This document shows positions 1 to 64,000 of a stretch of 64,000 bases of DNA, one piece after another. The position numbers and the translations under genes are program-made. The stretch is from a virus (taxonomy: Duplodnaviria; Caudoviricetes): IMG/VR virus record IMGVR_UViG_3300020202_000003, positions 265-64,264 of that record. One strand, written 5' to 3'. The notes under the pieces were generated by a model. The model was not told the DNA's origin. It worked only from the letters and a program-made list of their open reading frames with translations, and did not search any database. Each line of letters opens with the position of its first letter. Positions within the stretch are counted from its first letter, which is position 1.

Positions 1-159
1 GAACGCGCCCTTGGGCGTCCCGAATCCTGGCGAGGTGCAATTGACCGTGCCACCGTTCGAGGTCGGTAAGTCGGCCTGGCACACTTCAATGGAATTCGCG
101 GCGAGGACCGGCGACGAGAGGCTAAGGAGAAGACTGAGCGCGAGAACGAACCGTTTCAT
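1..159 (-). CDS. N-terminal part of a signal-peptide-bearing repeat-domain virion-module protein (runs off left edge)
   Basis: ATG at 159 overlaps the upstream TAA (TAATG); MKRFVLALSLLLSLSSPVLA-ANSIEVCQ...PGFGTPKGAF stays open to position 1; the GFxP motif recurs in the 63019-64000 ORF. Confidence 0.8.
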   Translation of the reverse strand, partial: MKRFVLALSLLLSLSSPVLAANSIEVCQADLPTSNGGTVNCTSPGFGTPKGAF

Positions 160-554
160 TATGGGAGCCCCAATTTGCTGCGCACGAGGGCCGGGGTGTT
201 GTAACCAGGGGCTCGCACTTCCGCTAAGAGGAAAATGGAATGGACGCCATCGAGATACATGGCCTTGCGCGCGATATCGATAGCCGTGGTGCCCGTAGGA
301 GCCAAGGCGGCCAAGGCGTCGTATTCCGTGACCTCGGCGCCAGTGATGCCGAGAATGGCAATCACCTGGTCCCGCGTGAGCTTGCCCTCGATCCGTTGAT
401 GGTTCGCGGCAAAGAATTTATGGACGGAGATATTCGGTCCGGGCGTGACCCCGTCATCCGCCAGCCCCATGAGGCGCTCCACGAGCGCGGCCTGCACGAG
501 GCCGGGAACCATGAAGAAGAGCACGAGCATCACAAGCAGGACGACACGAGGCAT
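159..554 (-). CDS. Hypothetical protein with Sec signal peptide
   Basis: MPRVVLLVMLVLFFMVPGLVQA| n/h/c regions; AGGAGG RBS. Confidence 0.8.
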   Translation of the reverse strand: MPRVVLLVMLVLFFMVPGLVQAALVERLMGLADDGVTPGPNISVHKFFAANHQRIEGKLTRDQVIAILGITGAEVTEYDALAALAPTGTTAIDIARKAMYLDGVHSIFLLAEVRAPGYNTPALVRSKLGLP

Positions 555-567
555 AGGACCCTCCTGG

Positions 568-1632
568 TTAGTCGCTCAAGGAATTGACGAGTAGTTGAAT
601 CAACGCCTCGCCGCGGAGAAAGAAATCCGTCAGCTGCACCGACGTAGTCAGCGTGGCGTCCACTTGACAGGCCCCGATGATGATGGCGTTCTCGGCGATG
701 GTCCCGCCGATCGTGATCGCGGCCGACACGCCGGTCACTTCCCGGTTCGTCACCGCCGGCGTGAGCGTCACGGCTTGCTCGCCGATGGTTTGGTGCGCTT
801 CGCCGGTATCGGTGCCAGGACGGTAGGATTTCCCGTTGCAGTGGAGGACGATATTGCCGGAGGGTGAGCCGGCATCGCTCACCCCCCAGAGGCGCACCGT
901 CATGGTCGTGGCGCCTTCCATCCTCTTGGTGACCGGGAAGTGGAAGCTGAACCCATCGCTATTCGAATCGGTCAGCGTGCCCCAATACGCTTTGGGCTGC
1001 CCTGTGACCGGGTTCGTCAACGTCATCGTGGTGGTGCCGGTGTCCGCCTCGAGCGGCACGTAGAACGACGCGAGCGGTTTATAGCCACTTGCAAATACAT
1101 AGCGACCGTTCGTGGTCGGGGAGTCCGGATCGAACGTGAACGCAGCGGCTCCCGCTTCAAGGTCGTACCAACTCCACGTGAAGCCATTGGGCACGAGCGT
1201 CCGCACGTTGGAGTCCGTACAGGGCCGAATCACCGGCCCGAGGGTGACATCGGTGTAGTGGCACATCGGCGTCACGCCGTCGCCGATCCGCACGGCATTC
1301 ACCAAGCTATTCGCGCCGGTGATCGATTTCCCGACGGCAAATGCGGCTTGCAGGTCTTGCGCTTCGACAAGGACGTTGACCGGCTGCCATTCATCCTCGT
1401 CATCGTTCCAAAAACAGAGACTCCGGGCCGTGCCGCCGCCCTCCGTGCAATCGCCGATCGATGTTGCGGTGGTCAAAAAGAAGAGTTGGTCGGCAGTGGG
1501 GCTGGCCGGGAAGGTCGCGCCGCTGTCGACGCCGCTGCCGGTGCCGCCTCCACTCCCGCGAATGATCTGCGCGGAGACCTGTGAGGCGAAGAGCAGTGAG
1601 AACGCGAGAATCAGCGCCAAGAGTCGTTGCAT
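568..1632 (-). CDS. Tail-fibre/appendage-like protein with Sec signal peptide
   Basis: MQRLLALILAFSLLFASQVSA|; beta-rich, G/T/S-rich; 'ATFPASPTADQLFF..T' fibre-type motif; paired Cys. Confidence 0.7.
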   Translation of the reverse strand: MQRLLALILAFSLLFASQVSAQIIRGSGGGTGSGVDSGATFPASPTADQLFFLTTATSIGDCTEGGGTARSLCFWNDDEDEWQPVNVLVEAQDLQAAFAVGKSITGANSLVNAVRIGDGVTPMCHYTDVTLGPVIRPCTDSNVRTLVPNGFTWSWYDLEAGAAAFTFDPDSPTTNGRYVFASGYKPLASFYVPLEADTGTTTMTLTNPVTGQPKAYWGTLTDSNSDGFSFHFPVTKRMEGATTMTVRLWGVSDAGSPSGNIVLHCNGKSYRPGTDTGEAHQTIGEQAVTLTPAVTNREVTGVSAAITIGGTIAENAIIIGACQVDATLTTSVQLTDFFLRGEALIQLLVNSLSD

Positions 1633-1882: not shown

Positions 1883-2743
1883 TTACCCCGAATACCGCCA
1901 TTTCAGATCGACGCGGTTCTGGGCGTTCGCCACGCTCGTCGCCGCGCAAATCGCGTCACAGGCCGGCGGCAGATAGATGTCCTGCCCGCCGATGTTCGTC
2001 AGCAAATCGCCGCTCGCAATGTTCACCGTGGACATCACGATGTGACCGAGGGTGGCGATGGTCGCCTGGCCCCGCGTCGTATCCGGCGCCGTGGTCGACT
2101 TCACGACTAGGAGGTACTGCGAGGGGGCCGTATACCCCAACGCCGTGAGGTTGCTGCGGCCATGCCGGTTCACAATAGCCGTGGCGGGCAAGACGCGATG
2201 CCAGTCCGCCGGCGCATCGAACCAAATCACCTGTTCGCCGGTATTGCCGGCCCCGAAAGACGGCGCGACATAGAAATTCTCGATCTCGGTAAAGTTGTTG
2301 GAGAATCCGGTCCCCGCCGTCACCTTGGAGTAATAGACCTCCCACGCGGTGTTGGCGTTACTGACTTGGGAGATGTTCAACGACACCATGTTGAACGGCA
2401 CGTCACAGCCGATCGCGAAGCCGTCGTTGTTCGTCCCGACCGTATCGAGGTTGAGATCCCCCGCGTCCGCGTCCTGCGCGTCCGCTGTGTCGTCGGTCAG
2501 CACACTCCCCGCGGCGTAGTTCGCGTCCGTCCAGCTATAAAACTTCCAACAGGAGGCTTGGATGCGGCCGCCAATGCCGAGCACGGCCGCCGAGCCGGCT
2601 CGGTTGTGCAAGCTAAACTCGCCGATGACGAACCGCGTCCCGTAGCTGTGCTGCGGCCGAGTCGCCAGGGTGATCAAGTCCGAATGCGAGTTGAGGAACT
2701 TGGTCCCCCAGGCCTTACTGACCGTCTCGTAGGCGTAGCGCAT
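1883..2743 (-). CDS. Putative virion structural protein
   Basis: 286 aa, beta-rich, GAAAGGA RBS, downstream of capsid gene. Confidence 0.65.
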   Translation of the reverse strand: MRYAYETVSKAWGTKFLNSHSDLITLATRPQHSYGTRFVIGEFSLHNRAGSAAVLGIGGRIQASCWKFYSWTDANYAAGSVLTDDTADAQDADAGDLNLDTVGTNNDGFAIGCDVPFNMVSLNISQVSNANTAWEVYYSKVTAGTGFSNNFTEIENFYVAPSFGAGNTGEQVIWFDAPADWHRVLPATAIVNRHGRSNLTALGYTAPSQYLLVVKSTTAPDTTRGQATIATLGHIVMSTVNIASGDLLTNIGGQDIYLPPACDAICAATSVANAQNRVDLKWRYSG

Positions 2744-2757
2744 GGTAGGTCCTTTCT

Positions 2758-2777
2758 CTAACTATCGGGAACGTTAT
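2758..2777. repeat. 20-bp palindromic motif, copy B
   Basis: CTAACTATC-GG-GAACGTTAT overlapping a stop codon, just before the next RBS. Confidence 0.7.
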
Positions 2778-3577
2778 CGCCGAGCCCGGCTGGTCCGGCG
2801 CCCACTGCCGGCACCGACCAATTGCCGTCCAGGCTTCTCGTCCTCGTCGTCCTCGTCTTCCGCGCGTTCGGCGTTCTGGGCTTCGAACTTCCGGCGCTCT
2901 TCGGCCATTTCAATTTCGATATCGCTTTTTTCGGGAGCCCGTTCCACGATCGAGTGGAACTGCGGCGTGGGATGCCATTGCCGTGTGGGTTCATCGATGA
3001 TCTGCCCGTTCGGCAACTTGCGTTTTTCAGTATGCTTAAAGTCCAGGGTGTAATAGCCCGACTCCGGACGCCCGGGATCGGCCCAGACCGCCCCTTCCGG
3101 CAAGCTGAACGGCACCGCGCCCGGGACCGGATTGTGCTGGTCCTGGCCATAGCCGTCGCCGTGGGAATTCACCGGCCCAGCTTGGTTGATGGAATCGGCC
3201 ATCGGCTCCAGCGTTTGCTGCATCGCTAAGAGCATCCGATCCACGATGTTATCGGGGATTCTACTGATCAAACTCACAAGCTGATCGCGCGAGGATTGCC
3301 CATCGTTCAAGGCCGGTGCCCCGCCCTGCACAACCGGCGTGGGTTGAATTTGAAGCGTCTTGATACGATCCAGCCACTTCTGCACGTCGTCCCTCGTCCC
3401 TGCATCGAATTCCGCCACTTGCTCGATGCTCGAAATAATGACGGCATCCCGGCCCTTGCCGAATTGCCATTGTCCGTTCGGGAGCTCGTATAACTCCTTC
3501 ACCGTCATGTTCCCCTTCTCTCCGACCGCCACCTGTACTGACCGCTTGACCGTGAAATCACCCGCTAACCGTTGCAT
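2774..3577 (-). CDS. Hypothetical protein (acidic/basic C-terminus)
   Basis: 267 aa, GGAGG RBS. Confidence 0.75.
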   Translation of the reverse strand: MQRLAGDFTVKRSVQVAVGEKGNMTVKELYELPNGQWQFGKGRDAVIISSIEQVAEFDAGTRDDVQKWLDRIKTLQIQPTPVVQGGAPALNDGQSSRDQLVSLISRIPDNIVDRMLLAMQQTLEPMADSINQAGPVNSHGDGYGQDQHNPVPGAVPFSLPEGAVWADPGRPESGYYTLDFKHTEKRKLPNGQIIDEPTRQWHPTPQFHSIVERAPEKSDIEIEMAEERRKFEAQNAERAEDEDDEDEKPGRQLVGAGSGRRTSRARR

Positions 3578-3610
3578 AGGTCCTCCGTTGGGTAAGGGAT
3601 AAGGTTGATC

Positions 3611-3699
3611 CGATGCCCAGCCGAGGCGGCCAAGACGAGCCGAAGCTCGTCCTGGCGCGTCCCATGCAGCCCGATCGTGAGTGATCGTTCAGGCATCGG
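3611..3699 (-). ncRNA. Candidate three-way-junction structured RNA (intergenic)
   Basis: Outer stem CCGATGCC/GGCATCGG; inner CGATC/GATCG; GCCAGGACGAGC-UUCG-GCTCGTCTTGGC; G-U pairs favour the - strand. Confidence 0.5.
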
Positions 3700-3701
3700 G
3701 G

Positions 3702-4661
3702 TTATGTGATAGCGATCACCAGTGTGCCGCCATCCGTGGCACCGACCCCGGAATCATAGTTCTCACTGATCTCGGCCTCGCCCGCGTCGAAGTTATCGAC
3801 GAGCTTGGTCACCAGTGAGCCGGCCCGGTTATCGTGAATCCAGACACCTGAGGCGAGTGACGCCCCGGTGCCATCGACCCCGACGGTCATCGCCGTGCCG
3901 TAGCACATGAACCGGTTCCAGGCGATTTCGAGGCCCTTGGTCGCGGCTCCGCACAAAACCGCTGCCGCCCAGGTGCCCGCGTTGTTCTGGAACAAGCAGT
4001 CGCGAATTACGGAATCGAGCAGGGCCGTCGCCGTAATGGCGGGCCCTTGGGCTCCGTCAGAGAAGAAGCGCGAGCCGCGAATCGAGACGTAGCTCGCCGC
4101 CCCCGTGGCCGCAATCCCGATGGTCGAGGTATGCGCGGCTGGGGTGTAGAGATCGAAGTGGCACTTGTCGACCAACAGGCCGTTGGCCACTGCCGAGAAA
4201 TCGATGCCCTTCGCTTGCGTGATCGGTCGGATGGTCAAGCCGATCAAGGCGACGTCCGGTGCCGTGATATTGGCGATTTCATCCCCGGCGATGCTGGTCG
4301 TGAGAATGGCGCTCGGTGCTTGCGCATCGAGTCCCATCCACGCCTCAGGGCCGAAGATCTTCACGCCCGTTTTGTTCAACGCGAGGGACGCCGTGGACAC
4401 CGTATGGGTACCCGACATACAGAGGATCGCATCCCCGCGTCCGTCCTGACAGGCATCGTGCGCCAGCTTGACGGAATCAAAGACGTAGGGATGGACGTTG
4501 CGCGCCCAGCTCCCAGCGCTGCCAATAGAGAAATCCGAATCGTAGGCTGTCGTCGGTGCGACGACATGCACCTTCCCCGGGACGGCATATTCCAACCCGG
4601 TCCATTTGCCTTCCCGCGACCGATTGAAGAGGTACCTATCGCGAACGTACATGCCAGACAT
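3702..4661 (-). CDS. Parallel beta-helix (pectate-lyase-like) virion protein
   Basis: 'DAILCMSGTH' cap followed by repeated I-x-x-C/N-x-F beta-helix strands. Confidence 0.7.
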   Translation of the reverse strand: MSGMYVRDRYLFNRSREGKWTGLEYAVPGKVHVVAPTTAYDSDFSIGSAGSWARNVHPYVFDSVKLAHDACQDGRGDAILCMSGTHTVSTASLALNKTGVKIFGPEAWMGLDAQAPSAILTTSIAGDEIANITAPDVALIGLTIRPITQAKGIDFSAVANGLLVDKCHFDLYTPAAHTSTIGIAATGAASYVSIRGSRFFSDGAQGPAITATALLDSVIRDCLFQNNAGTWAAAVLCGAATKGLEIAWNRFMCYGTAMTVGVDGTGASLASGVWIHDNRAGSLVTKLVDNFDAGEAEISENYDSGVGATDGGTLVIAIT

Positions 4662-4724
4662 GGAGCCTCCTTCTCATGAATCAGGAGGCGGATAAGCCGC
4701 CCCCTGTCATGCCAAGTGAACGGG

Positions 4725-5390
4725 TTAGGACACTTCGAATCCGGTCGACAGATTCTCGAACTCTTCCGCCTTCGGGAATCCGAGCACGAACGCCAACGCT
4801 TCCGTCCCCAACGTGCAGGCCGTGGCGACATCGACATCGATGCTGTTGCCCGGGTTGACCTGAATCGGCGAGCTCATCCGCTTCCAATTGACGGCGCCAA
4901 TGGCTTGCGCCGTGGTCGCATTGGGCGCCGTAATGGTCCCCTGCGTGCCGTCCAGATTGGCTGCGGTAATGGTTCCCTTGGCGTTGATCGCCGGGTACAG
5001 ATCGAAGTCAATCTTCGCGGGCGTGGTCGTCCCGGCCACCCCGAAGGTGAATCCGATGATGTCCACCAAGAAGTAATCGAAGACGTTGAATTGCCCTTCC
5101 GAGCCGGTGCCGCTGAAGTCCATGACGCCCGCGATATCGGGATGGAGCCAGCGTCGGCTGTCGTCGCCGTAGAGTCCGCCCCTCAAGGCGGGGAGCGGAT
5201 TGGCAAGAAATTCGAGGCCCAATGCCTGCCGCATCGTCCGCATCGACGGCGCCCACCATTGGCGGGCTGTCACGCGATAAATGTCGCAGGCCAGGGGAAT
5301 GTCGCTCTCACGCTGCACGAGCTTGGCGAGCGGTGCCGCCACCGCCCCTAAGACTCGCCACAGCCCGTTGAAGTTGTACTTCTTAAACAT
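4725..5390 (-). CDS. Putative capsid decoration protein with 72-aa leader ending LPALRGG
   Basis: Directly after the capsid gene; beta-sandwich-like C-terminal part. Confidence 0.65.
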   Translation of the reverse strand: MFKKYNFNGLWRVLGAVAAPLAKLVQRESDIPLACDIYRVTARQWWAPSMRTMRQALGLEFLANPLPALRGGLYGDDSRRWLHPDIAGVMDFSGTGSEGQFNVFDYFLVDIIGFTFGVAGTTTPAKIDFDLYPAINAKGTITAANLDGTQGTITAPNATTAQAIGAVNWKRMSSPIQVNPGNSIDVDVATACTLGTEALAFVLGFPKAEEFENLSTGFEVS

Positions 5391-5436
5391 GATCAGTCCT
5401 CCCTCAAGAATGGATGAATGTCCCGCGTCCTCCTGA

Positions 5437-5456
5437 CTTACTTTCCAGACAGTGAA
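5437..5456. repeat. 20-bp palindromic motif, copy C
   Basis: CTTACTTTC-CA-GACAGTGAA abutting the capsid stop codon. Confidence 0.8.
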
Positions 5457-6413
5457 CTAGGACGACGTGAAATAGACGCTGCGTGCCTCGCCATCGTTGG
5501 CGCTATCGCCCCACACGTTGGCAAAGCCCAGGACCCCGAACCAGGCCACAGCCCGCTGACGGCCGAAGTCCGCAGGAATGCCGGCCAACAGCTCCGGCGC
5601 TTCCACCTCGGCCAAGGCCAGGATGTCATCGCCGAAGAAGATCGCTTCGCCGACGGCGCTGCCCGTGCCGCGTTCCGTCAACACGTTGTCGTGATCGACT
5701 TCGATGAAGCGGACCTTCTCGATCTCCCCGATTTCGGCGTTGTGGAACACTTCGCCGGGCCGGAGATACTGCCGCCAGGAATGAAACTCGGGATCGTCCT
5801 TGACGCCGCGACAGGCTTTCGTGGACGCCAAGCACATATAGGCCTGGCCCTGATACGGATCGACGTGGAGCGTCTTCCGCATGTAGTCGCGGATCAACTT
5901 CACGTGCGCGACCGTCATGTTGTTCGTCCCGGTCACAGAAGTCGTGCCGGCATCGGTCGTGAACGTTCCGCCCACGGCGCTCGTGGGGCCGAAGCGGATC
6001 TGACAGGACTTCATGGCCGTCCCGGCCACGGTGTCCAACGTCAGCTTCATCTGCTTCTTGAGCGATTTCTGAATCGCGTTTTCCGGGTCGAACTTATTGA
6101 GCAACTGCACGAGCCGCGTGTAGCCCACGCCGCGGCCAAACTCGGTGACGGTGATCGATCGCGTGGACATGGCCATCTGATCGATCGGAATCTTGCCGGT
6201 TTGACTCAGGACCGCCGACGTCGGCTCCGCGATGTTGCGGATGCGCTGAATCGTCACGGACTCGCCTTGATGGGCCCCAAAGCCCGGTTCTGGCCGCGCA
6301 AACTGCAGCACCAGCGTTTCCGCGATGCTGGCGTAGCGCAGCTCCGAGCTCAGCGCATGATTGCGCGAGACCCCTGAGGTAATGCTGCCACTCCACTCAA
6401 AATTCCCTGCCAT
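5457..6413 (-). CDS. Major capsid protein (N4-gp56-like, HK97 fold)
   Basis: 318 aa; GESVTI, ITVTEFG, EIGEIEKVRFIE, DFGRQRAVAW motifs; follows scaffold and portal. Confidence 0.85.
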   Translation of the reverse strand: MAGNFEWSGSITSGVSRNHALSSELRYASIAETLVLQFARPEPGFGAHQGESVTIQRIRNIAEPTSAVLSQTGKIPIDQMAMSTRSITVTEFGRGVGYTRLVQLLNKFDPENAIQKSLKKQMKLTLDTVAGTAMKSCQIRFGPTSAVGGTFTTDAGTTSVTGTNNMTVAHVKLIRDYMRKTLHVDPYQGQAYMCLASTKACRGVKDDPEFHSWRQYLRPGEVFHNAEIGEIEKVRFIEVDHDNVLTERGTGSAVGEAIFFGDDILALAEVEAPELLAGIPADFGRQRAVAWFGVLGFANVWGDSANDGEARSVYFTSS

Positions 6414-6455
6414 GATTCAGTCCCTCCCTGGGTAAGGCCAGGCCGTGACGAGGGC

Positions 6456-7442
6456 TTAGCGGGTCCGCAACATTCTGGCGCTGTCTCTCAACCGCTCTTT
6501 CCTTAAGCGAGCGATGTCAGCCAGAGAGGAGCCAGGGCCTTCTATGTCGTCCCCGTCGTCCTCCTGTCGGCTGCCGCGCCGTGTCGTGGCGGTTTCGCCA
6601 AGTACGCCGTCCTGGTCTTCCCGGTGTCGGCGTTTCTCGTCCTTGAAGGCTTGGCTTGATCGTTTGCCTCTCATCAGTCGCTCCTTGAATTCCTTCACCA
6701 GCTCGGGGATCTGCTCGGCGTCCGGCACCCGCTTGAACCAGTCCCGATCGGTCACGAGCTTGCTGGCCGCCATGTCCTGAACGAGGTCAAGGTATTCTTG
6801 GGGCAATCCTTGCCGTTCCAGTTCTTTCAGCGTCAGCCGCTCCGACCGTTCGGCCTGTTCCTCGCGCGTCAACCGTTGCTCGACCACACGGGACGAGCGT
6901 TGATCGATCTCCGACATGAGGCGTTCCCGCTCGACCCTGAATCGCTCTTCGTTGTGCTTTTCGATCAGCGCATACACTTTCTCCGTGCGTTCAGGATCAT
7001 CGTTCGCAATGGCCCTGACCTTGGCGGCCAGTTCACGGGCGCGGGCTTCGGCTTGGGCGTTCGCTTCGTCGGTTTGCCGGTTGACATCCTCGCGGGTCTC
7101 CCGTTGCTGTTCGATCCGCGCGAGCCTGGCGTTGAAGTCTTCAATGAGCTTGTCTTTGCGTGCATTCTCGGCAATGAGCCGATCGCGTTCTGACTTCAGT
7201 GCGTCATAGGCTTTCGCCGATTTGTCAGACTGGTCAGACCGTTTGCCTCTTGGCTGGTCGTCAAGGTCGTCGTCATCCAACCGATCGTCCTCGTCGACTA
7301 TGTGGGTGTCCTTCTCCTCAAGGTCTTCCTCGTCATCGACGGCAGCGGACCCTTTCGGATCATCCCGATCGATGGTCAACAGGTGAGCATGGCGATGGAT
7401 GTCACCAGCGGCCCACCCTATTTTGCGTAACAACGTGTCCAT
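6456..7442 (-). CDS. Capsid scaffolding protein
   Basis: Acidic N-terminus, long coiled coil, between portal and capsid; likely start MDTLL at 7442 with GAGGA RBS. Confidence 0.75.
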   Translation of the reverse strand: MDTLLRKIGWAAGDIHRHAHLLTIDRDDPKGSAAVDDEEDLEEKDTHIVDEDDRLDDDDLDDQPRGKRSDQSDKSAKAYDALKSERDRLIAENARKDKLIEDFNARLARIEQQRETREDVNRQTDEANAQAEARARELAAKVRAIANDDPERTEKVYALIEKHNEERFRVERERLMSEIDQRSSRVVEQRLTREEQAERSERLTLKELERQGLPQEYLDLVQDMAASKLVTDRDWFKRVPDAEQIPELVKEFKERLMRGKRSSQAFKDEKRRHREDQDGVLGETATTRRGSRQEDDGDDIEGPGSSLADIARLRKERLRDSARMLRTR

Positions 7443-7470
7443 GCAGTCCTCACGTACTCCGTGGAAGCGG

Positions 7471-7490
7471 CTTACTTTCTGGAAAGTAAG
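7471..7490. repeat. 20-bp palindromic motif, copy D (perfect 9-2-9)
   Basis: CTTACTTTC-TG-GAAAGTAAG, intergenic upstream of scaffold. Confidence 0.85.
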
Positions 7491-7511
7491 CAATCGACAC
7501 GGGTGAAAAAG

Positions 7512-7670
7512 TTAGCAGTCGCCTTTCATCTTCTTCTGCTTCCAAAACGGGCTCTTGAGCGGATGCTTCTCGAGCCGTTTAGTGCCCGGATCATGTCCGC
7601 CGTTCGTGTTCATCGATCCACTCGGGGCTGCGGCTTTGCTCATCTTCATGTTGTCGCCGTAGTCGGCCAT
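7512..7670 (-). CDS. Small hypothetical protein
   Basis: MADYGDNMKM..., AAGGAG RBS. Confidence 0.55.
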   Translation of the reverse strand: MADYGDNMKMSKAAAPSGSMNTNGGHDPGTKRLEKHPLKSPFWKQKKMKGDC

Positions 7671-7695
7671 GGCGCACTCTCCTTTCTTGGTCCGC

Positions 7696-7992
7696 TTAGG
7701 ACCAGGGTTGGGTATCGCCCACCGCTTCCCGCACTTTCTTGTGCGCGGCTCTGCGAATGGTCGATTCGATAGACCCCAGATCACCAGCCATGTCGGTTAT
7801 CGCCCTCAAGACACCCAAGGCCTGATAGCGAATGGCGAGGGCTTCCACTTCGGTTTTGTCCGGATTCATGAGTTCACTCATGAGGCCGATTACGGTTCGC
7901 TCAAACTGCCGGACAACGAGCACCTTCGTGCCCTCATCGAGCATGGCCGACTGCAACTGGAGCGCTTCGCGTTTTTCTTCGACGGAGTTCAT
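7696..7992 (-). CDS. Hypothetical protein downstream of portal
   Basis: ATGA overlap with the portal stop; helical; 98 aa. Confidence 0.7.
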   Translation of the reverse strand: MNSVEEKREALQLQSAMLDEGTKVLVVRQFERTVIGLMSELMNPDKTEVEALAIRYQALGVLRAITDMAGDLGSIESTIRRAAHKKVREAVGDTQPWS

Positions 7993-9890: not shown

Positions 9891-9899
9891 TAGTGCTCC

Positions 9900-10148
9900 C
9901 TACCCACGGTGATAGAGTCCTCCGCGTAAATCCCGCTCCAGCTGATCCGCTTGCATGGCATGCCCCAGGTTGCGGAGCTTGATGTCACTGATACAGCCAG
10001 TCACGGGAGGATCGCCTTGGGCCGCGTACCAGACCTTCGTGCAGTTCCCGCACTTCAGGACTTCCTTCTTGCCGTCCTTGATCGCCCGAATTTCCTGATA
10101 GCCTTGAACCCAATCGTGCCGGCCGAGTTCGCGTCTGATATTCGCCAC
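9900..10148 (-). CDS. Small CxxC protein ending DLRGG-LYHRG
   Basis: GTG start, GAGG RBS, CGNC. Confidence 0.65.
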   Translation of the reverse strand: MANIRRELGRHDWVQGYQEIRAIKDGKKEVLKCGNCTKVWYAAQGDPPVTGCISDIKLRNLGHAMQADQLERDLRGGLYHRG

Positions 10149-10178
10149 TGGGATTTCCTCTAGAGGCTCGTTTTGGGC

Positions 10179-10232
10179 AAAAAAAAGGAACGGCCCGCCA
10201 GATCCCCCGAAGAGGACCCAACGAGCCGTTCC
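10179..10232 (-). terminator. Rho-independent terminator upstream of portal operon
   Basis: 21-bp stem (6 G-U), C(UUCG)G loop, followed by U8 on the - strand. Confidence 0.85.
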
Positions 10233-10292
10233 TAGAACAATACGTCTGGATTAGGCTAAACTAGTATTTTTTCTTACCGCTCTTTTTTGTCT

Positions 10293-10454
10293 TCATCGCT
10301 CCTCATCTTCGCTAAACTTCTTCACACGAAATTTATTGATACTTCCTCCAGTACCACAGTCCATTTCAAACGTCAAGAACATCTTGCCTTGAATCATTGG
10401 CAGATTCGAAAACTCATGAATCACCCGCTTCATGAACTTCTCAGGCAGTTTCAT
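10293..10454 (-). CDS. Small hypothetical protein
   Basis: MKLPEKFMKR..., 53 aa, precedes an AT-rich intergenic region. Confidence 0.55.
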   Translation of the reverse strand: MKLPEKFMKRVIHEFSNLPMIQGKMFLTFEMDCGTGGSINKFRVKKFSEDEER

Positions 10455-10456
10455 GG

Positions 10457-38032: not shown

Positions 38033-38063
38033 CTCGCCTCCGTGTAGTGATTCTGTAGTGCGA

Positions 38064-38092
38064 GTTGTAGCACTAGTACTAGCACTTGTCAA
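38064..38092 (-). promoter_or_regulatory. Leftward sigma70-type promoter
   Basis: TTGACA-17-TACAAC with extended -10 TG; spacer contains the palindrome CTAGTACTAG. Confidence 0.7.
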
Positions 38093-53856: not shown

Positions 53857-54114
53857 ATGTGGCTCATCCTCTCACTGGCTCTCACGTTGACTGGCTGCGC
53901 CTCGTATGGCTTCGACGAGGCCTATCGTCAGTACAATGTCCGGCCCTGTACCCATAACTGCTGGGATGTCCTCCCACTCTCGGACATGCGCCCTCGCCGC
54001 TTTTACGATCCGTCACGTTCATGGCAGATGCTTCGGACTCCCTCCGGTGCGCTGTATCATCGCTACGGCAACATGATCGTCGGTCCTTCCGGGGACCTCA
54101 CCACCGTCTACTAA
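53857..54114 (+). CDS. Lipoprotein moron (possible superinfection exclusion)
   Basis: MWLILSLALTLTG|C lipobox; opposite strand to the tail module. Confidence 0.72.
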   Translation: MWLILSLALTLTGCASYGFDEAYRQYNVRPCTHNCWDVLPLSDMRPRRFYDPSRSWQMLRTPSGALYHRYGNMIVGPSGDLTTVY

Positions 54115-55172
54115 AGTGCCAGCGCCATCGCGGGCGTCAGTGGCTCCTCGTCCAACACCCAATAGTCGGCATCGACGTCTCGGCCTTTCACGAGCCGATC
54201 CAGCTCGCGAATGCTTCCCGTGAGCAAACCTAAATACGACACCAGATCCACGGCCTTTCCATTCGACACGGTGCGCGGCATCTTGTCGGCCATGGCGCCG
54301 ATATGCTTCGTGCCGTCGTGCTTATACTTCCATTTCTTGACCGGCATCCGTCGCAGCGCGGCCAACAGTTCCGCGTCACTCACCGGCTCAATGTCCGTTT
54401 TCGCGTCGGGATCGGACAGGAACGCCATCCCGGCCATCCCAGCGAGGCCCAGCCCCGCACTGATATACCCCGCGCGATCCTGGCCGGCCGCCACGTTGCT
54501 TTGATATTGCATGCCGCGCGTGTAGTTGTCCTGATCCCGCGCCGACGACAGGGATTGCTGCGCCGGGATCAACATGCGGGCCTGTGCGGCAAACGGGTTT
54601 TCGATCTGGCTCGCTTCGACGGAGCGGCTATTCTGGCGGTTCAAGGCCAACGCTTCCGCCGTTGTGAGCATGTCGCGCTGCTCGGCTTCCTGCAGCGCAA
54701 TCCGGTTCCGATCGAACGCCTCTTGCTTTAAGGTGCCGGCCGTGGAGTGTTTGTGGCCCGGCCCCCCCTTCCGATACAGTTCTTCATCGAGGCGTTGCTG
54801 CCCCAATTGAAATTCCCGCTGCAGCGTCTTACTGACGGGTAGTTCCCCCTTGAGCGCCTTCTGACTGCGCTCCAACTGCATGCGCTCAATATCGCGCTTC
54901 ATTTGCGTCAGGCTCGGGTCCACATCCTCATAGGTCTTCGTGTCCGGGTTGTATCGGAGCCCAGCCCGCTCCAAAAGAATGGGCTCCAACTTTTTGCTTC
55001 GGTTGGCGTTCTGAGTCTGCAGATCCAACAGCATATTCTGCTTTCTGACCAAGTTCGGATCTGCCGCGGGGACCTCCGGTCCATCCCCACCCTTCAAGAC
55101 AGGGAACAAGCGCCCGTCGTCGAGCACGACAAATTCGAGCCCGTTCTGCCACACCCGGTTATGCTGCGCCAT
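54111..55172 (-). CDS. Internal virion protein with C-terminal peptidase S74 (intramolecular chaperone) domain
   Basis: SDPDAKTDI...W.YK...HIG.MA; glycine-rich TM-like segment before it; leader ending FPVLKGG. Confidence 0.75.
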   Translation of the reverse strand: MAQHNRVWQNGLEFVVLDDGRLFPVLKGGDGPEVPAADPNLVRKQNMLLDLQTQNANRSKKLEPILLERAGLRYNPDTKTYEDVDPSLTQMKRDIERMQLERSQKALKGELPVSKTLQREFQLGQQRLDEELYRKGGPGHKHSTAGTLKQEAFDRNRIALQEAEQRDMLTTAEALALNRQNSRSVEASQIENPFAAQARMLIPAQQSLSSARDQDNYTRGMQYQSNVAAGQDRAGYISAGLGLAGMAGMAFLSDPDAKTDIEPVSDAELLAALRRMPVKKWKYKHDGTKHIGAMADKMPRTVSNGKAVDLVSYLGLLTGSIRELDRLVKGRDVDADYWVLDEEPLTPAMALAL

Positions 55173-55578
55173 GATGATGCCCTCCATATCGACTCACAAG
55201 ATCCTTCACGGTCTTCGGCAGGTGCGCGCGGTCGGCTACTTTGCGGAAATGCCAATGGTCTGCCGTCTCGGCGTACAGTTCCGCGCCGACCATCTCCGTC
55301 CATTGCCGCATCGCCCAATTCCCTTTCCGAATCACTTGTAACCAGCCGACAATGCCCTCGGCTTCCAAGTGATGTTCCAGCCGGTTGATTTCCCCCAGGA
55401 GTCGGCGAATCCCGTCCCGATGCCCGTCGAGTGGTGGCAAGCTATCCAACTGCACCCATACCTGATTCGCCTGGGAAATTCGCTTTTGCACCCCAAACAA
55501 TGGCCACTCCTCATGATCCTGGAGCCCACAGCGTTCGAGCCACGCGAGCTTGCGCTGCTGGTACCAACAGGCCCTCAT
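55159..55578 (-). CDS. GNAT-like protein (T7 gp13-like position)
   Basis: I..GN.AM..W....G motif; lies between nozzle and ejection genes. Confidence 0.55.
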   Translation of the reverse strand: MRACWYQQRKLAWLERCGLQDHEEWPLFGVQKRISQANQVWVQLDSLPPLDGHRDGIRRLLGEINRLEHHLEAEGIVGWLQVIRKGNWAMRQWTEMVGAELYAETADHWHFRKVADRAHLPKTVKDLVSRYGGHHHGAA

Positions 55579-59079: not shown

Positions 59080-59400
59080 TTAATGCGGGTCCACCGGCCC
59101 GGACTTCGCGATAATTTCAGTCTTCCGGTCTCCGCTTTTCGTGGTCCCGTAGATCCACATCACAAACATCATCAGGGCATCGCGCAGCGTCGTGGTCAGT
59201 TCATGGATCGCCGACTCAGATCCCTTCTGAATATTGACAAAGATCATGAGCAAGGCCGTGCCGAAGTAGATCGACAGAATGATGCTGCCGACGACATACG
59301 GTCCCTTCTCCGATTTCGTCTTGCGGTTCGGAATGACCGTCGCCGACTTCTGCTCCACCACCGTGCCGCCGACTGGTTCCTGGTCGTTACCCATGTCCAC
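59080..59400 (-). CDS. Putative holin (2 TM)
   Basis: Two hydrophobic helices, YGTTKSG..K tail; lysis cassette. Confidence 0.65.
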   Translation of the reverse strand: MDMGNDQEPVGGTVVEQKSATVIPNRKTKSEKGPYVVGSIILSIYFGTALLMIFVNIQKGSESAIHELTTTLRDALMMFVMWIYGTTKSGDRKTEIIAKSGPVDPH

Positions 59401-59647
59401 CCCCTACCGCATCCCACAGAGCCGCAATATTCCTCTTGTTTTCTTCGTGTCGTTCATTCTGAAGGCGCTCTTGCAGTTTTGCCCACATTTCCATGGAACC
59501 CAGGCGCTCGCTGATCGTGGTCAAGGTGCGGTTCATTTGATCTTGCCCATCGATAAACCGCTTGAGGAAATAGCCCAAGGCCAAGACTAGCAGCGCAAAC
59601 AGAAATGCCGCGAAGGGATAGACAATGATGGTAAGAACCTCGTTCAT
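59387..59647 (-). CDS. Holin/antiholin-like protein (1 TM plus coiled coil)
   Basis: N-terminal TM; between endolysin and holin. Confidence 0.6.
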   Translation of the reverse strand: MNEVLTIIVYPFAAFLFALLVLALGYFLKRFIDGQDQMNRTLTTISERLGSMEMWAKLQERLQNERHEENKRNIAALWDAVGGGHG

Positions 59648-59748
59648 CGTTTCTTCCTCTTCGGACACGTATGCTGCATGTGGTTATGGACATCTTTGTG
59701 TTGCAGCATCGCCCCACAGAGCCCACATTGGTACAGTTTCGGTTTCAT
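59644..59748 (-). CDS. Tiny zinc-finger peptide
   Basis: MKPKLYQCGLC...HNHMQHTCPKRKKR; ATGA overlaps at both ends. Confidence 0.55.
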   Translation of the reverse strand: MKPKLYQCGLCGAMLQHKDVHNHMQHTCPKRKKR

Positions 59749-60269
59749 ACCGGCACACTCACGGGTTGCGCCTTGAACTGCGCGTGAATCACCTTGAGCT
59801 TCCCCTCCTGATCCGTCACCCAGTCCAACGGAATGCCGTGCTGCGGCAGGCTGCGGATGGTAGACATGATCCGGTCCGCTGTCGGCTTGTCGAACAGCCC
59901 GTTCTTGAGTCGGGGATACTGGATATCGAAGGCATCCCCGCGTACATGCGCCATCTTGTTGAAGTCCTCCGCGAAGTGCTCTTGCAGCTGATCGTAAAAT
60001 CCCCGCGTGAGGACTTTGTAATCCGAGCACGCCTCCCGGTGTTCCTCCATGTAGGTCATGAGTACCGCGACCATGCGCCGATTGCGATAGGTGTCGCTGA
60101 TCCAGCTGGGTCCGTATTGAATCGCGTTCTGGGCCATCACCCGCGCCTGATCCATGAGATCGCGCCTGCCTGAGGTAAAGACCGCATCCGGATGCGCCTG
60201 CTTCACAAGCAATGCTGCCTTCTCGGCCGTCGGTGACAACCGCAGTTCTTGGATCGTGAGACCAGCCAT
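59745..60269 (-). CDS. Endolysin, peptidase M15-like
   Basis: FTSGRR...AH-x6-D (AHVRGDAFDI)...VIHAQF. Confidence 0.75.
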   Translation of the reverse strand: MAGLTIQELRLSPTAEKAALLVKQAHPDAVFTSGRRDLMDQARVMAQNAIQYGPSWISDTYRNRRMVAVLMTYMEEHREACSDYKVLTRGFYDQLQEHFAEDFNKMAHVRGDAFDIQYPRLKNGLFDKPTADRIMSTIRSLPQHGIPLDWVTDQEGKLKVIHAQFKAQPVSVPV

Positions 60270-63022
60270 CAGAACCCTCCTCCTGCAACGGTCGGGATCA
60301 CATCCATATGAGCGGGAACATCGCCCGCCGCGTTCAGCTCTTCGCCGTTGTCTTTGAAGACCTTGCAATCAATCGCGTCGTTCTGCGCCGCGTTGAGCCG
60401 GAGCACCGTCCTTAGTTCATAGTGCTGGCCCACTGTCAGGGGCGGGACAACGATCACCGTCGCCTCGTCGCGCAACACTTTCCCGCCGACGTAGCTCCCT
60501 GCATTCAATCGTTGCGTAAGGTCCGAGAACGAGGCCGGGACTTGTTCGTCGGTCGCTTCCGCGCCGGCTCCGTAAAACCGAAAGACGTTGGAGCCGAACG
60601 TATTCATCACGCGCGCGTAGTCGCCGCCGTTCAAGCGGCAGTACAGGTGCGCGCCAAACGAGGCCGTCGTCTCGACGCTCCCCGTGAGCTCGACCTGAAA
60701 CCCGACCATCGCCGTGGGCATGACGGGCCGCGCGGTATTCACGGTGCCAGAAATCGGCGCACCATCTTCCGAGCCGATGGGATAGATAAACTGGTACTGC
60801 GTTTGGGTCACGACCCCGCTCCCTGGTGGATCCGGGGATTCGGGCAGGACCGGTACGACCACATAGGTCCAGAGGTTATTGCCGCCCATCGACCCGCCAT
60901 CACCGAAGACGCCGCCGTTATTCCCTGACTGCGATACGCTTGCGAGCCGTAAATCTCCGGCCGTCGCGGTGTCGTTGAGCAACGTCTCGTTCGCTCCGAC
61001 GGCGAAACTCGTTCCGCACTCGCCGTCCGAGGGATTGCACTTGGCCCCTAAGAATCCGTAGAGCGTCTGCCCGCTTGCAGTGCTAACCGTCACGCTCGGC
61101 GTCGAGCTCGCCGTGGCCGTGCCAGCCGCCACGGGCGTGCCGAACGATCCCATCTCCGCAATGTAGATCGACTCCGCCGCCATGAAATCCGTACCCGCTG
61201 CGCCACTCACGGAAATGGTGCATGTGCCGGTATTCGGGCCGGTGATGCCGAACACTTTCGTCCGTCGGTACGGAGGACTCGTGACGGCTTCGCCACCGGA
61301 CAACGCCGTGACGCTCTGCCCACTACAGGCCGTTGGCGTCCCGATCGCGCCGACGCTACCCTGCGTGTCGTAGGCCGTGACCGCCACAAGAAGCCCCTGC
61401 GTCAAGGCTGGAATCGTTTGATTGATGGACACGCTTGTCGTGCCGATGCCGGTTGCATGGTTGGCCGGTCCGCTTGGCGTGCCCGCGACGCCATACCCAG
61501 ATGGGAAGGTGCACCCGCCCGTGTTCACATTGAGCCGCGTATGCACGTCGTACAGAGAGGTGCCTGCTACCCGATTGAGTCCATCCGCCGTCGCCGCGCC
61601 ATGAGGAAAAGCACCCGTGGTTGGATCCCATAAAGGCGTGGACGTTAACACGCCATCCACGTACCGATAGAGAATCGTCGCGTTGATGTCACTCCCACCC
61701 GTGCCCGCGCCTTTGACCGCTGCCCCAACAGGAGCCCAGAGCTTGCACGTTCCCATGCCATGTGCGGACGTCGACGTATTCGTCAGATTGGGGGACGAGG
61801 AAGGACTAAACGCGGTCGTGTTCCCTACTGAAAACACTTCATTCGCGGTCCACGTGTTAAAGCCCGTGACATTAAGTCCAATATCCCCGGCATTTGCCAG
61901 TAAAAGATTAGTCATGGTCACGGAATTATCCGCAGCCGTGACTCCATCCGGATCATCGTCTAACGTGATGCCCCGCGCCCCTACTCCGGTGCCCAGCACC
62001 GTGAAATGATCGACCCGGCAATTCCCATAACAGTCGCTCAACCGCAGGGCGTTGGCCGTGCTCGCCCAATCCACCACGGCGATATCGCGGATGAGAATGT
62101 CTTGCACAGTTCCATTGATGCCAGGACGGCGAGAGCTGGGGAACACCGCATTGCCATAACTGCACACCCGGCAGATCGAGCCGAGGATCTTGTTGTTGAT
62201 GTTCGGCATGGGGCTGGAAAGGATTGGAGTACCCGTGTATTCAGCATTGACTTCGATCAGATAGGTCGGCCCTTCCGCAATCACATTCTCCACCACGCTG
62301 TCTCGTGCGGGGTACAAGCTAATACAGGCATCGCCACGCCCCGCGCCATTTTGCGACGTCCCCTGCCCGCCAGGGATGCGCCCGGTGCGAGGATGACAAT
62401 AGAGCCGGCGGATAATGACATCGGACGACCATTTGACGTTCACTCCGTGGCGGTGGTAGTCGTAAATTTCGTTATCCTCAAACAGCACATGCGTGGAATA
62501 GTAGATCCCGTTGCCGGAACTCGAGTACTTGTTAGGATTGTGATACACGCCATTTCGAGCTGTGACGTGGTGGCTTTCACGGATATAGAGCGGCACCCCG
62601 ATTTGAGAGGTCGTAAAACTAGAGTTGTTGGTCGATTTCGCAACCAGCCCGTCGAGGACGATATACTCGCTCTGAAACACCCGGATGGCGTTACTTGATC
62701 CATCGTCGACAATCTTCGCCTGTCGTTGATTTTCCGCACGAATCGTCAGTTCGTTGCCGAGGGTGCACACCAATCCATTGACATCGATCCGCGAGGTTCC
62801 CGACGCGCCTCCGGCCGACGTCGGTCCGTAGATGCCATTTTTGACAAGGAGGATGTCGCCGCACGACGCGCGTGCTGGATTGATGGCATGGCTGAACGTT
62901 TTCCAGGGGCTCGCGCTAGATCCGGTGCCAGTCGAGTCGTTCCCCGTGTCATCGACGTAAAACGTCGCGCTGAACACGGCAGACGGCAGACTGAGCATGA
63001 GCAGGAACGCCAGGATAATCAT
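60269..63022 (-). CDS. Beta-helix (pectate-lyase-like) tailspike-like protein with Sec signal peptide
   Basis: MIILAFLLMLSLPSAVFS|ATFYVD..GND..GS...PWKT..A; GD..LVK.G.Y; further beta-sandwich domains. Confidence 0.8.
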   Translation of the reverse strand: MIILAFLLMLSLPSAVFSATFYVDDTGNDSTGTGSSASPWKTFSHAINPARASCGDILLVKNGIYGPTSAGGASGTSRIDVNGLVCTLGNELTIRAENQRQAKIVDDGSSNAIRVFQSEYIVLDGLVAKSTNNSSFTTSQIGVPLYIRESHHVTARNGVYHNPNKYSSSGNGIYYSTHVLFEDNEIYDYHRHGVNVKWSSDVIIRRLYCHPRTGRIPGGQGTSQNGAGRGDACISLYPARDSVVENVIAEGPTYLIEVNAEYTGTPILSSPMPNINNKILGSICRVCSYGNAVFPSSRRPGINGTVQDILIRDIAVVDWASTANALRLSDCYGNCRVDHFTVLGTGVGARGITLDDDPDGVTAADNSVTMTNLLLANAGDIGLNVTGFNTWTANEVFSVGNTTAFSPSSSPNLTNTSTSAHGMGTCKLWAPVGAAVKGAGTGGSDINATILYRYVDGVLTSTPLWDPTTGAFPHGAATADGLNRVAGTSLYDVHTRLNVNTGGCTFPSGYGVAGTPSGPANHATGIGTTSVSINQTIPALTQGLLVAVTAYDTQGSVGAIGTPTACSGQSVTALSGGEAVTSPPYRRTKVFGITGPNTGTCTISVSGAAGTDFMAAESIYIAEMGSFGTPVAAGTATASSTPSVTVSTASGQTLYGFLGAKCNPSDGECGTSFAVGANETLLNDTATAGDLRLASVSQSGNNGGVFGDGGSMGGNNLWTYVVVPVLPESPDPPGSGVVTQTQYQFIYPIGSEDGAPISGTVNTARPVMPTAMVGFQVELTGSVETTASFGAHLYCRLNGGDYARVMNTFGSNVFRFYGAGAEATDEQVPASFSDLTQRLNAGSYVGGKVLRDEATVIVVPPLTVGQHYELRTVLRLNAAQNDAIDCKVFKDNGEELNAAGDVPAHMDVIPTVAGGGF

Positions 63023-64000
63023 TCCGGAAACACCATGGGCGAATAGGTTCGCCGCGCTGAAGCCGGCGCTTGCACAAAGAGGAGCGCGCGCTGTTTGGCG
63101 CCGCCGACGTTGACGGTGTAGTTCAAATCGCCGCCATCACTGGTCCATTGTGTGAACGTGCACGTGGCATAGTCGTCGTTGGGCGTGCCTTTGCGGGTCC
63201 GGCACACTTTGTTATCGGTCACGCTTTCGGTGTTGCTCGTGCCGTCGCTGTCTTCGTTGTAGGCCGCTGTACTGGCCGACGCCGAGGCAGTAAAGGCACT
63301 CAAGCCGAAGACTTCTCCATCGTCCACACCGTAGGTGGTATCGACGGCGGTAAACTCGCCTTGGAGCATCAGGCCGAATTGAGGCCGGAAGCCGACGCCC
63401 GTAATCGACTCCGAACCCGTGCCGGCCGGCGCCGGATCGGTCATGAGCTTGACGGACAGACCGGACAACTTGACGGCGATGTATCCGAACGTCGGCACGC
63501 CCGAGGTGGAATCCCGCGTCGTGACGGTAAAGCCGTTCGCGTCGAAGGATGTGAGTTCCAGCGTGGAGATTGCGACGGGGTTCGTGATCAATCTGTCCGT
63601 CGCCAGGCGCGAGGCGACGGTCATGCTTGCTGAATTGTCCGAATCGTTGCTGCCAATCGACCGTTGCACGATCGTCGGGCCCGCCTCTCTCGTCGCCAAC
63701 CCCACGCTCATCCGCCAATGCCCGGTTCCGTATGTGGCCCAAGCGATCAGCATGTCCGGTGTAAAGCCCGGTGCGCTGACGGCCGTGGTCCCGCCGATCG
63801 CTCCGTTCCCGGTCGCCGTGCCCACATGGACGTTCGACACCCCAGCCCCGCCAAAGAGGACGACATTGACGCGATAGGCTGCCGGTGGCGCGTCCGCACA
63901 GGTGAAGCGCACCCCATCTGTGATAAAGGAGAGGGTACAGTCGCCGTCTTTGACGTGCGCCGGATCTAGTGTAATCAGAGCTGAATCGGCATCGGTGGCG
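63019..64000 (-). CDS. C-terminal part of a repeat-domain virion-module protein (open to right edge)
   Basis: Frame open from 63999; repeats GFTPD/GFRPQ and SF..DG/NG; likely the same gene as 1-159. Confidence 0.8.
   Translation of the reverse strand, partial: ATDADSALITLDPAHVKDGDCTLSFITDGVRFTCADAPPAAYRVNVVLFGGAGVSNVHVGTATGNGAIGGTTAVSAPGFTPDMLIAWATYGTGHWRMSVGLATREAGPTIVQRSIGSNDSDNSASMTVASRLATDRLITNPVAISTLELTSFDANGFTVTTRDSTSGVPTFGYIAVKLSGLSVKLMTDPAPAGTGSESITGVGFRPQFGLMLQGEFTAVDTTYGVDDGEVFGLSAFTASASASTAAYNEDSDGTSNTESVTDNKVCRTRKGTPNDDYATCTFTQWTSDGGDLNYTVNVGGAKQRALLFVQAPASARRTYSPMVFPE

Follow-up and report, generated by a model that had tools for sequence, protein, structure and literature searches.

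Signal peptides on four adjacent genes at the fiber position of a tailed phage: predicted depolymerase and receptor-binding modules rebuilt for Sec export

Why would a tailed phage encode, at the usual position of its fibers and spikes, a run of proteins that begin with signal peptides? The locus that raises this question lies in a 64,000-nucleotide (nt) stretch of viral DNA, called here the window (positions 265 to 64,264 of IMG/VR record IMGVR_UViG_3300020202_000003; Duplodnaviria, Caudoviricetes), and consists of four adjacent genes, A, B, C and D. According to the textbooks, the structural and host-recognition proteins of tailed phages fold and assemble in the cytoplasm, and the Sec-exported phage proteins that are known serve lysis (exported and signal-anchor-release, or SAR, endolysins, and spanins) or are exclusion lipoproteins. 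To our knowledge, no exported fiber or spike cassette has been described in tailed phages, and searching the literature for tail fibers or other virion proteins that such phages export by Sec gave no relevant result. The comparisons reported here indicate that the cassette is made of phage depolymerase and receptor-binding modules rebuilt for Sec export, and that the observation is real beyond the genome of the window.

The original prediction, made from the letters of the window, was that four adjacent minus-strand open reading frames (ORFs) carry Sec-type leaders with n-, h- and c-regions, and such leaders are indeed present. We scanned 93 greedy ORFs of the circularized genome with a heuristic of our own, which looks for a charged n-region, an uncharged hydrophobic h-region and small residues at positions -3 and -1. 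Six of the 93 ORFs score at least 4, and four of these six are B (7.66), A (6.25), C (5.84) and D (4.23, sixth of the 93); the remaining two are at 27207-27413, where the ORF has a lipobox (4.96), and at 37929-38165 on the plus strand (4.59). With a slash at the predicted cleavage site, the N-termini read MQRLLALILAFSLLFASQVSA/QIIRG in A, MPRVVLLVMLVLFFMVPGLVQA/ALVER in B, MKRFVLALSLLLSLSSPVLA/ANSIE in C and MIILAFLLMLSLPSAVFS/ATFYV in D. Positively charged n-regions are found in A, B and C (MQR, MPR and MKR), and in all four proteins the h-region is followed by small residues at -3 and -1 (VSA/Q, VQA/A, VLA/A and VFS/A, from A to D). The n-regions of A, B, C and D contain no RR of a twin-arginine (Tat) motif, and there is no lipobox for signal peptidase II, no cysteine being present at the four cleavage sites or elsewhere in the leaders.

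The genes are closely packed. A and B are separated by 13 nt, B and C overlap by 1 nt, C and D overlap by 4 nt (ATGA), and D overlaps the next gene by 1 nt; Shine-Dalgarno sites are good for A and B and weak for C and D, and promoter- or terminator-like sites around the cassette do not rise above shuffled expectation. Judged from this layout, A-B-C-D appear to be translationally coupled, directly upstream of a predicted lysis cassette. Gene C runs across the ends of the window. The ends of the 64,264-nt record share a 127-nt repeat, which gives a phage genome in the form of a 64,137-bp circle; the window (record 265-64264) is without the 137 nt (record 128-264) that lie between its position 64000 and its position 1, and record 1-127 recurs as window 63874-64000. 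The direct join of position 1 to position 64000 that had been proposed for this gene is out of frame, as those 137 nt are absent from the window there. The junction gene itself holds up: 159+137+982 nt encode 425 residues, and the product is in the protein database as P0143.

Leaders of this kind are kept by relatives of the cassette proteins. By the same heuristic, leader-like N-termini occur in 81 of 93 homologs of D, 40 of 49 homologs of A and 35 of 72 homologs of C, and they are retained despite divergence of the D, A and C homologs to 30-50% identity. Several of the 12 leader-negative D homologs are N-terminally cut or have longer extensions. In the homologs, conserved mature sequence begins directly after the leader (ATYYISP..., AEFAVVQ...).

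The cysteines follow the leaders. The mature proteins A, B, C and D contain 6, 0, 6 and 16 cysteines, and the four cysteine motifs pointed out beforehand are all found in the sequences. Even cysteine counts prevail in the mature parts of leader-bearing proteins (77 of 81 for D, 40 of 40 for A and 34 of 35 for C) and stand at the chance level, 17 of 37, in leaderless relatives of C; the sequences are related, so these counts are not independent events. In a 50-row alignment of the C family (A2), the count is even in 25 of 25 leader-bearing rows versus 11 of 25 leaderless rows, the cysteine columns 120/133 and 365/379 are gained or lost jointly and never singly, and cysteine is absent at all six columns in 25 of 25 leaderless rows. 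The leaderless relatives of C have their start methionine at the mature start of the leader-bearing ones (MAEFAVV... versus ...A/AEFAVVQ...), and leaderless relatives of B likewise begin where mature B begins. In a quick tree built from 50 mature C sequences, the leader state needs 2 changes, and 0 of 500 shuffles was as low; with midpoint rooting, used for drawing only, every basal group is leaderless. The two changes and the leaderless basal groups suggest that the leader of the C family is a derived character, inherited and retained. Export and periplasmic disulfide bonding, as originally proposed, are thus well supported by comparison, through conserved leaders, even cysteine counts, cysteine pairs gained together and leaders added to leaderless families, and we consider it highly probable that A-D are exported by Sec. 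As to their fate after export, the alternative offered then was that they are secreted as depolymerases or adhesins, and it suits the evidence no worse than docking on particles at lysis.

What kinds of proteins carry these leaders? The model of C (predicted local distance difference test, pLDDT, 93.8; predicted template modeling score, pTM, 0.91) is all-beta, with three jelly-roll-like repeats in one chain. Its top four matches among 48,161 chains are engineered single-chain trimers of C1q, Cbln1, APRIL-BAFF and adiponectin, over residues 19-413. The likeness to C1q/TNF trimers is middling (Z 7.6-6.4, root-mean-square deviation [rmsd] >5 Å, Foldseek TM ~0.3) and suggests that C may be a natural single-chain pseudo-trimer of C1q/TNF-type jelly rolls. 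Taken singly, its domains show a low-Z likeness (2.5-4.8) to the C-terminal domains of tailspikes and baseplate proteins of phages. Neither Pfam nor PHROGs yielded a match for A, B or either piece of C, and PHROGs yielded none for P0143 or leaderless relatives of C. These leaderless relatives, in other uncultured phages, are proteins of 430-440 residues or form the N-terminal 400 residues of proteins of 660-1190 residues; the C-like domain is also found fused to Pfam Sipho_Gp37 (E 2e-22).

Mature B is homologous to leaderless ORFs of 104-124 residues that lie directly upstream of leaderless C-like genes (in a small local database, E 8e-9 at locus L068 and ~2e-5 at L080 and L061). At L073, the genes of the major head protein and the head-tail adaptor flank a B-C-type gene pair. 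Because homologs of B precede leaderless C-like genes, B-C would be an old phage gene pair, both members of which bear leaders here. For A, 49 homologs share the C-terminal three quarters and have varied N-terminal parts, nearly all behind a leader; the nearest clusters in the Atlas are viral and are leads only. The leaderless phage relatives of B and C, together with a tail-fiber domain in a variant of A that is discussed below, argue that tail-module families have acquired signal peptides here.

Some features of the wider C family deserve mention in their own right. At L065:7122-9269, a 715-residue protein has a Polysacc_lyase domain (25-257, E 5e-26) fused ahead of the C-like domain, a different enzyme coupled to this pseudo-trimer module. 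In alignment A2, family members often end, leader-bearing or not, in a short basic tail past the last beta-strand (...RRR...P or ...RRRNQ), which might be a docking peptide. Other viral contigs encode leader-bearing proteins of 1107, 830, 891 and 402 residues (L060:1306-4629, L062:103-2595, L067:5310-7985 and 9300-10508) next to C-like tail proteins that have no leader, so that export from within or around tail modules may extend beyond the A-D cassette.

For D, structure prediction had been suggested as a check, and the model (pLDDT 80.8) shows a right-handed beta-helix over residues ~18-490 (Z 28.6-25). In the structural comparison, for which Foldseek was also run, 365 of 988 chains reached Z values of at least 8. 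The best match of the helix is the AlgE6 epimerase module (Z 28.6, rmsd 2.5, 324 residues aligned), and residues ~16-490 also match the Dettilon tailspike (Z 28.5) and PL6 alginate lyases, RbmB, the Sf6 tailspike and K5A lyase (Z 25-27). The alignments begin at model residues 16-20, that is, at the predicted cleavage site, and they reveal no N-terminal particle-binding (head-binding or adaptor) domain ahead of the helix. D scores 16.9 bits against Pfam Beta_helix PF13229, under the cutoff of 25.9, and its PHROG tail match is weak; a Nitrospira relative, P0043, barely passes PF22842 (26.6 versus 25.2 bits), over its first 54 residues only. We read D as a putative polysaccharide depolymerase.

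The helix half of D has cellular relatives. Residues 1-520 are 48-52% identical to proteins of 520-530 residues from Nitrospira metagenome-assembled genomes (MAGs), which are themselves leader-bearing, and sampling 301 genomes of the Nitrospira family found D-like cellular proteins in 10, always as the N-terminal half alone. At L019/L020 the D-like cellular gene lies within an exopolysaccharide or capsule biosynthesis cluster, among genes for two DegT aminotransferases, a Bac_transf+Polysacc_synt_2 protein, a GNVR/AAA_31 chain-length kinase, UDP-glucose dehydrogenase, a GFO-hexapeptide transferase, a carbamoyltransferase and a GT2 glycosyltransferase. By these comparisons, the beta-helix half of D can be traced, leader included, to an exopolysaccharide-cluster enzyme of the probable host. 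Beside the D-like enzyme in this cluster, L019:6450-7805 (minus strand) encodes a 451-residue protein with a "Viral BACON" domain (BACON_2, E 7e-23) and fn3.

The beta-rich C-terminal half (521-917) behaves otherwise in searches: its 36 matches among 1.84 billion representatives all fall in the D family, as the C-terminal half of proteins of 860-1040 residues or as fragments. With no relatives outside the D family among those representatives, it offers no independent clue to docking; in the Atlas it lies near viral clusters (features 0.91; TM 0.84 for 735-915), a lead only. A tblastn search of cultured phages (50,697 phage records) with D, C (P0143), P0194 and P0097 gave no match, and relatives of D in viral contigs numbered 0 when D alone was used and 12 with alignment A1.

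The host is probably Nitrospira, a nitrite oxidizer, given that the D helix is closest to Nitrospira proteins. Full-length homologs of D are found on contigs labeled Nitrospira, one of them 4.41 Mb long. Among 301 sampled genomes of the G001 family, a portal search gave one positive, genome G114, where short contigs encode a portal of 76% identity; the four genomes that supplied L016 and L018-L020 gave none. Three short contigs of G114, a Nitrospira-family MAG, carry parts of a phage with 64-80% DNA identity to window 1989-10452 (C43, C81 and C122; L098-L103); the G114 contigs found do not span the cassette region. A literature search on Nitrospira phages returned nothing specific. The periplasmic space of Nitrospirales is extended, and large microcolonies are formed by typical strains (PMC13049253).

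The cassette is found again in other surroundings. L004/L079 and L078 have the same run of four leader-bearing genes (small protein, A-like, C homolog and D-like), and in L006, L007, L008, L009 and L016 a leader is also present, given the right start codon, on the ORF that immediately precedes the D homolog. Over 8 loci, the three positions upstream of D hold 24 ORFs, 14 of them leader-like; of the other ORFs, 16 of 101 are (Fisher p = 5e-5). Since the cassette loci share little else with the window, the cassette appears to move between backbones, as a mobile unit of four genes. On the unrelated backbones of L005, L007 and L009, the D homologs precede small ORFs whose N-termini are hydrophobic or lipobox-like.

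Nearly all genes of the window are on the minus strand. The order of transcription begins with the portal (7989-9890) and the major head protein (5457-6413), both assigned by PHROGs, four unassigned genes and a 71-residue ORF; then come A, B, C, D, the 175-residue gene, two small hydrophobic ORFs and the Rz-like spanin with its embedded lipobox ORF; and last the tail-type genes, which include the Peptidase_S74 fiber, and a 3841-residue polyvalent protein (Table 1). The 175-residue gene has no sequence match in Pfam, PHROGs or PDB. The embedded Rz1-type arrangement points to a diderm host, and the integrase marks it as temperate.

Table 1. Genes of the cassette, its downstream neighbors and further features, in window coordinates
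Feature	Coordinates	Strand	Description
Gene A	568..1632	-	354 residues; predicted signal peptide 1-21, Gly-rich stretch, fiber-like, 6 mature Cys
Gene B	159..554	-	131 residues; predicted signal peptide 1-22 plus small Cys-free protein
Gene C, start	1..159	-	First 53 codons; predicted signal peptide 1-20 plus beginning of mature part; continues into record 128-264
Gene C, end	63019..64000	-	Last 982 nt; complete protein 425 residues (P0143), all-beta, 6 mature Cys
Gene D	60269..63022	-	917 residues; predicted signal peptide 1-18, beta-helix ~18-490, C-terminal half 521-917, 16 mature Cys
175-residue gene	59745..60269	-	Overlaps D stop by 1 nt, strong Shine-Dalgarno; leaderless; putative endolysin by position only
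Two small ORFs (93 and 106 residues)	59080..59668	-	Hydrophobic stretches; candidate holin/antiholin by position
Rz-like i-spanin, 202 residues	58462..59070	-	PHROG Rz-like matches, weak (E 0.002-0.009)
Rz1-like o-spanin ORF	58524-58772	-	Out of frame inside the Rz-like gene; lipobox-like LLAC, read by eye
Tail fiber, 358 residues, leaderless	54111..55187	-	Peptidase_S74 PF13884, E 7e-7, 29.8 vs 22 bits, residues 258-302
Phage_integrase family protein	38746-39828	+	Pfam

It had been stated that no other tail fiber is recognizable in the window. This does not stand, as the 358-residue protein of Table 1 carries Peptidase_S74 above the Pfam threshold and has no leader; 55575-57467 and 54111-55187 both match PHROG tail-fiber and virion families. 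The leaderless S74 fiber can plausibly serve as the particle's own receptor-binding protein. Another leaderless protein, of 319 residues (3702-4661, minus strand), is encoded three annotated genes plus the 71-residue ORF upstream of A and has a sub-threshold Beta_helix match (E 0.0087, 16.1 versus 25.9 bits); it could be a second, cytoplasmic spike-like protein.

Elsewhere in the window, the 3841-residue ORF (40975-52500, minus strand) has an inorganic pyrophosphatase (InPase) domain at 864-1000 and an Sbno-like helicase (AAA_34 at 1753-2073 and Helicase_C_4 at 2251-2510). Its domains suggest a giant polyvalent protein that is probably injected. We had considered an N4-like phage with this ORF as virion RNA polymerase and dropped the idea, as Pfam gives the Sbno-like helicase and InPase. 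A 68-residue ORF in the early/middle region (27207-27413, minus strand), the lipobox ORF of the leader scan, has a lipoprotein-type leader (...WALVGC/T) and is a candidate exclusion or envelope lipoprotein. The gap at 1633-1882, upstream of A, was ruled out as a regulatory gap; it holds the 71-residue ORF, and its RNA fold is ordinary (z = -0.73). No tRNA genes were found in the window.

How would exported proteins of these kinds work for the phage? Our tentative preference is for free or loosely particle-bound matrix-degrading factors. A-D would be made late and carried unfolded by Sec into the host periplasm, where the leaders would be cut and disulfide folding would take place, with 3, 0, 3 and 8 possible pairs in A, B, C and D. 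The catalytic beta-helix of D would have been taken, with its leader, from a Nitrospira exopolysaccharide- or capsule-cluster enzyme; A, B and C, as fiber-like, small-partner and lectin-like pseudo-trimer proteins of tail-module ancestry, would have gained leaders that bring them to the compartment of D. The four proteins would build up in the periplasm until the adjoining holin/endolysin/spanin cassette fires and would then leave with the progeny, as free or loosely particle-associated matrix-binding and -degrading factors, with D acting on the host's own exopolysaccharide. Polysaccharide would be stripped around the burst cell and its microcolony neighbors, so that progeny could escape and reach new cells. 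Comparison supplies the leaders, their conservation, the cysteine pattern, the family ancestries, the fold of D and the gene arrangement; that the proteins are in fact exported and cut, what D acts on, when this happens and that the proteins stay free are inferences. We favor this reading because it requires no unprecedented step, because D is without an adaptor domain, because the cassette travels with lysis genes and because a leaderless S74 fiber is available.

Several observations pull away from free factors. Residues 27-98 of P0121, the variant of A mentioned above, align with residues 6-76 of a leaderless "tail fiber protein" of Oceanospirillum phage vB_OliS_GJ44 (39% identity; database E 3e-3, which is weak; pairwise E 8e-10); this domain sits directly after the leader, and the match is a single weak one among 50,697 phage records (tblastn). 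The remainders of the longer leaderless relatives of C match the PHROG "minor tail protein" family phrog_538 (E 1e-29 and 2e-16) and phrog_1082, of the tail category (E 2e-98). A four-protein set that has fiber- and adaptor-like members and is shuffled between backbones would be expected of a branched receptor-binding complex rather than of soluble enzymes acting as a kit, and the phage-specific 400-residue C-terminal half of D could be a docking domain. The n-region of D consists of M alone, so that D is the only one of the four without positive charge there. The host assignment, finally, consists of MAG labels plus homology and is not proof. In a different reading, virion assembly would be divided between two compartments and A-D would be appendages (side fibers, spike and adaptor) that must fold in the oxidizing periplasm and dock on finished particles at holin opening or after the burst. 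We regard it as possible and somewhat doubtful. It accords with the pairing of B with C in leaderless phages, the fusion of C-like domains to PHROG minor-tail and tail families and to Sipho_Gp37, the weak alignment of the P0121 domain with the leaderless vB_OliS_GJ44 fiber, the distant likeness of C domains to tailspike and baseplate C-terminal domains, and a cassette placed among head and tail genes, with the mosaic distribution over backbones that is usual for receptor-binding modules. Viral clusters of the Atlas resemble the C-terminal half of D, a lead only; proteins at micromolar concentration in the periplasm could dock within seconds of holin triggering; and the periplasmic space of Nitrospirales is extended (PMC13049253). 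Against docking, no tailed-phage precedent is known to us or came up in the literature search, D has no N-terminal particle-binding domain, and the window encodes both the leaderless S74 fiber and the leaderless, weakly beta-helical product of 3702-4661. At L067, moreover, a leaderless C homolog adjoins a leader-bearing beta-helix protein, from which it follows that partners need not share a compartment. A fuller version of the docking idea is that tailed phages of Nitrospira make capsid and tail in the cytoplasm, that Sec-exported fibers and a host-derived depolymerase spike, folded oxidatively in an unusually large host periplasm, dock on finished particles in the seconds from holin triggering to rupture of the outer membrane, and that capture of a disulfide-dependent exoenzyme forced leaders upon B-, C- and A-type proteins; this we find doubtful.

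The exported proteins could also act on the cell that makes them, by masking or destroying the receptor polysaccharide from the periplasm or the cell surface (superinfection exclusion, or progeny kept from adsorbing to debris) or by lysogenic conversion from the prophage. Exported exclusion proteins do exist in phages (T5 Llp and Cor), the phage is temperate, and the cellular relative of D presumably trims its polymer during export, as is proposed for WceF (PMC7949094). Such a role is nonetheless improbable: A-D are apparently coupled in translation inside the string of late structural and lysis genes, where promoter-like sites do not exceed chance, four large proteins are much for exclusion, and B, C and the domain of the A variant are of tail-module ancestry. 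The lysogenic conversion that had been raised originally is unlikely for the same position in a late operon beside lysis genes. Least probable of all, to the point where we give it little weight, is that the hydrophobic N-termini are uncleaved membrane anchors or start-codon artifacts. The uncharged n-region of D and the weak Shine-Dalgarno sites of C and D would suit this explanation, but the n/h/c layout with small -3 and -1 residues recurs in dozens of diverged homologs with mature sequence right behind it, leaderless relatives begin exactly at the cleavage point, even cysteine counts fit export, and start codons are fixed by overlaps with upstream stops.

Known systems resemble the cassette in part. 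The virion tailspikes of P22, Sf6, HK620 and Dettilon and the K5A lyase fold and trimerize in the cytoplasm, have no leader and bind the particle through an N-terminal domain. D is like them in its beta-helix (Z ~25-28.5), its position in the late string and its likely surface-polysaccharide substrate, and unlike them in its leader, its 16 cysteines and its want of a particle-binding domain. Sec-exported or SAR endolysins, such as Lys44 of Oenococcus phage fOg44, P1 Lyz and phage 21 R, are single peptidoglycan hydrolases, made late, that use Sec, stay outside the cytoplasm until lysis and are encoded in or beside the lysis cassette. A-D share with them a presumed late expression, Sec-type leaders and a place beside the lysis cassette, and differ in being four non-lytic proteins of fiber, lectin-like and depolymerase type. 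Free phage depolymerases, which cause plaque halos, are soluble, released by lysis and active on neighboring cells. Those we know of are cytoplasmic surplus or products of alternative starts and not Sec substrates, and we know of none with three exported partners. RbmB of Vibrio cholerae and the PL6 alginate lyases are secreted matrix polysaccharide lyases whose beta-helix is structurally close to residues ~16-490 of D (Z 25-27); they are bacterial dispersal or catabolic enzymes, and D shows no family membership at the sequence level (16.9 versus 25.9 bits).

The closest parallel from the bacterial side is WceF of Pantoea stewartii, an exported, tailspike-like glycosidase of the stewartan exopolysaccharide cluster (PMC7949094). 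WceF and the ~520-residue Nitrospira relative of D are both beta-helix proteins encoded in exopolysaccharide clusters, with an export signal and a tailspike-related fold, a likeness that would point to traffic between host exopolysaccharide enzymes and phage spikes. WceF is a bacterial gene product with a Tat leader and a tailspike-like N-terminal head domain, whereas D is encoded by a phage, its leader is of the Sec type and free of twin arginines, and in place of an N-terminal domain it carries an extra C-terminal half of 400 residues.

What sets this locus apart is a whole cassette at the usual fiber and spike position that appears to be built for Sec export and is conserved across several unrelated backbones. 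A practical rule for annotation is that a signal peptide does not rule out tail-module ancestry. The cassette also offers candidate enzymes against the biofilm polysaccharide of Nitrospira. Under either of the two leading readings, the cassette would represent an undescribed way for phages to handle an exopolysaccharide matrix, in hosts that are uncultured and biogeochemically central (nitrite oxidizers and comammox bacteria of wastewater and soils). A genuinely new two-compartment assembly route is in our view rather doubtful; if docking on particles proves true, it would be a new assembly pathway. If A-D are free factors, the reading that we prefer, they would form a Sec-dependent, disulfide-stabilized kit for escape and spreading that is tied to the lysis cassette.

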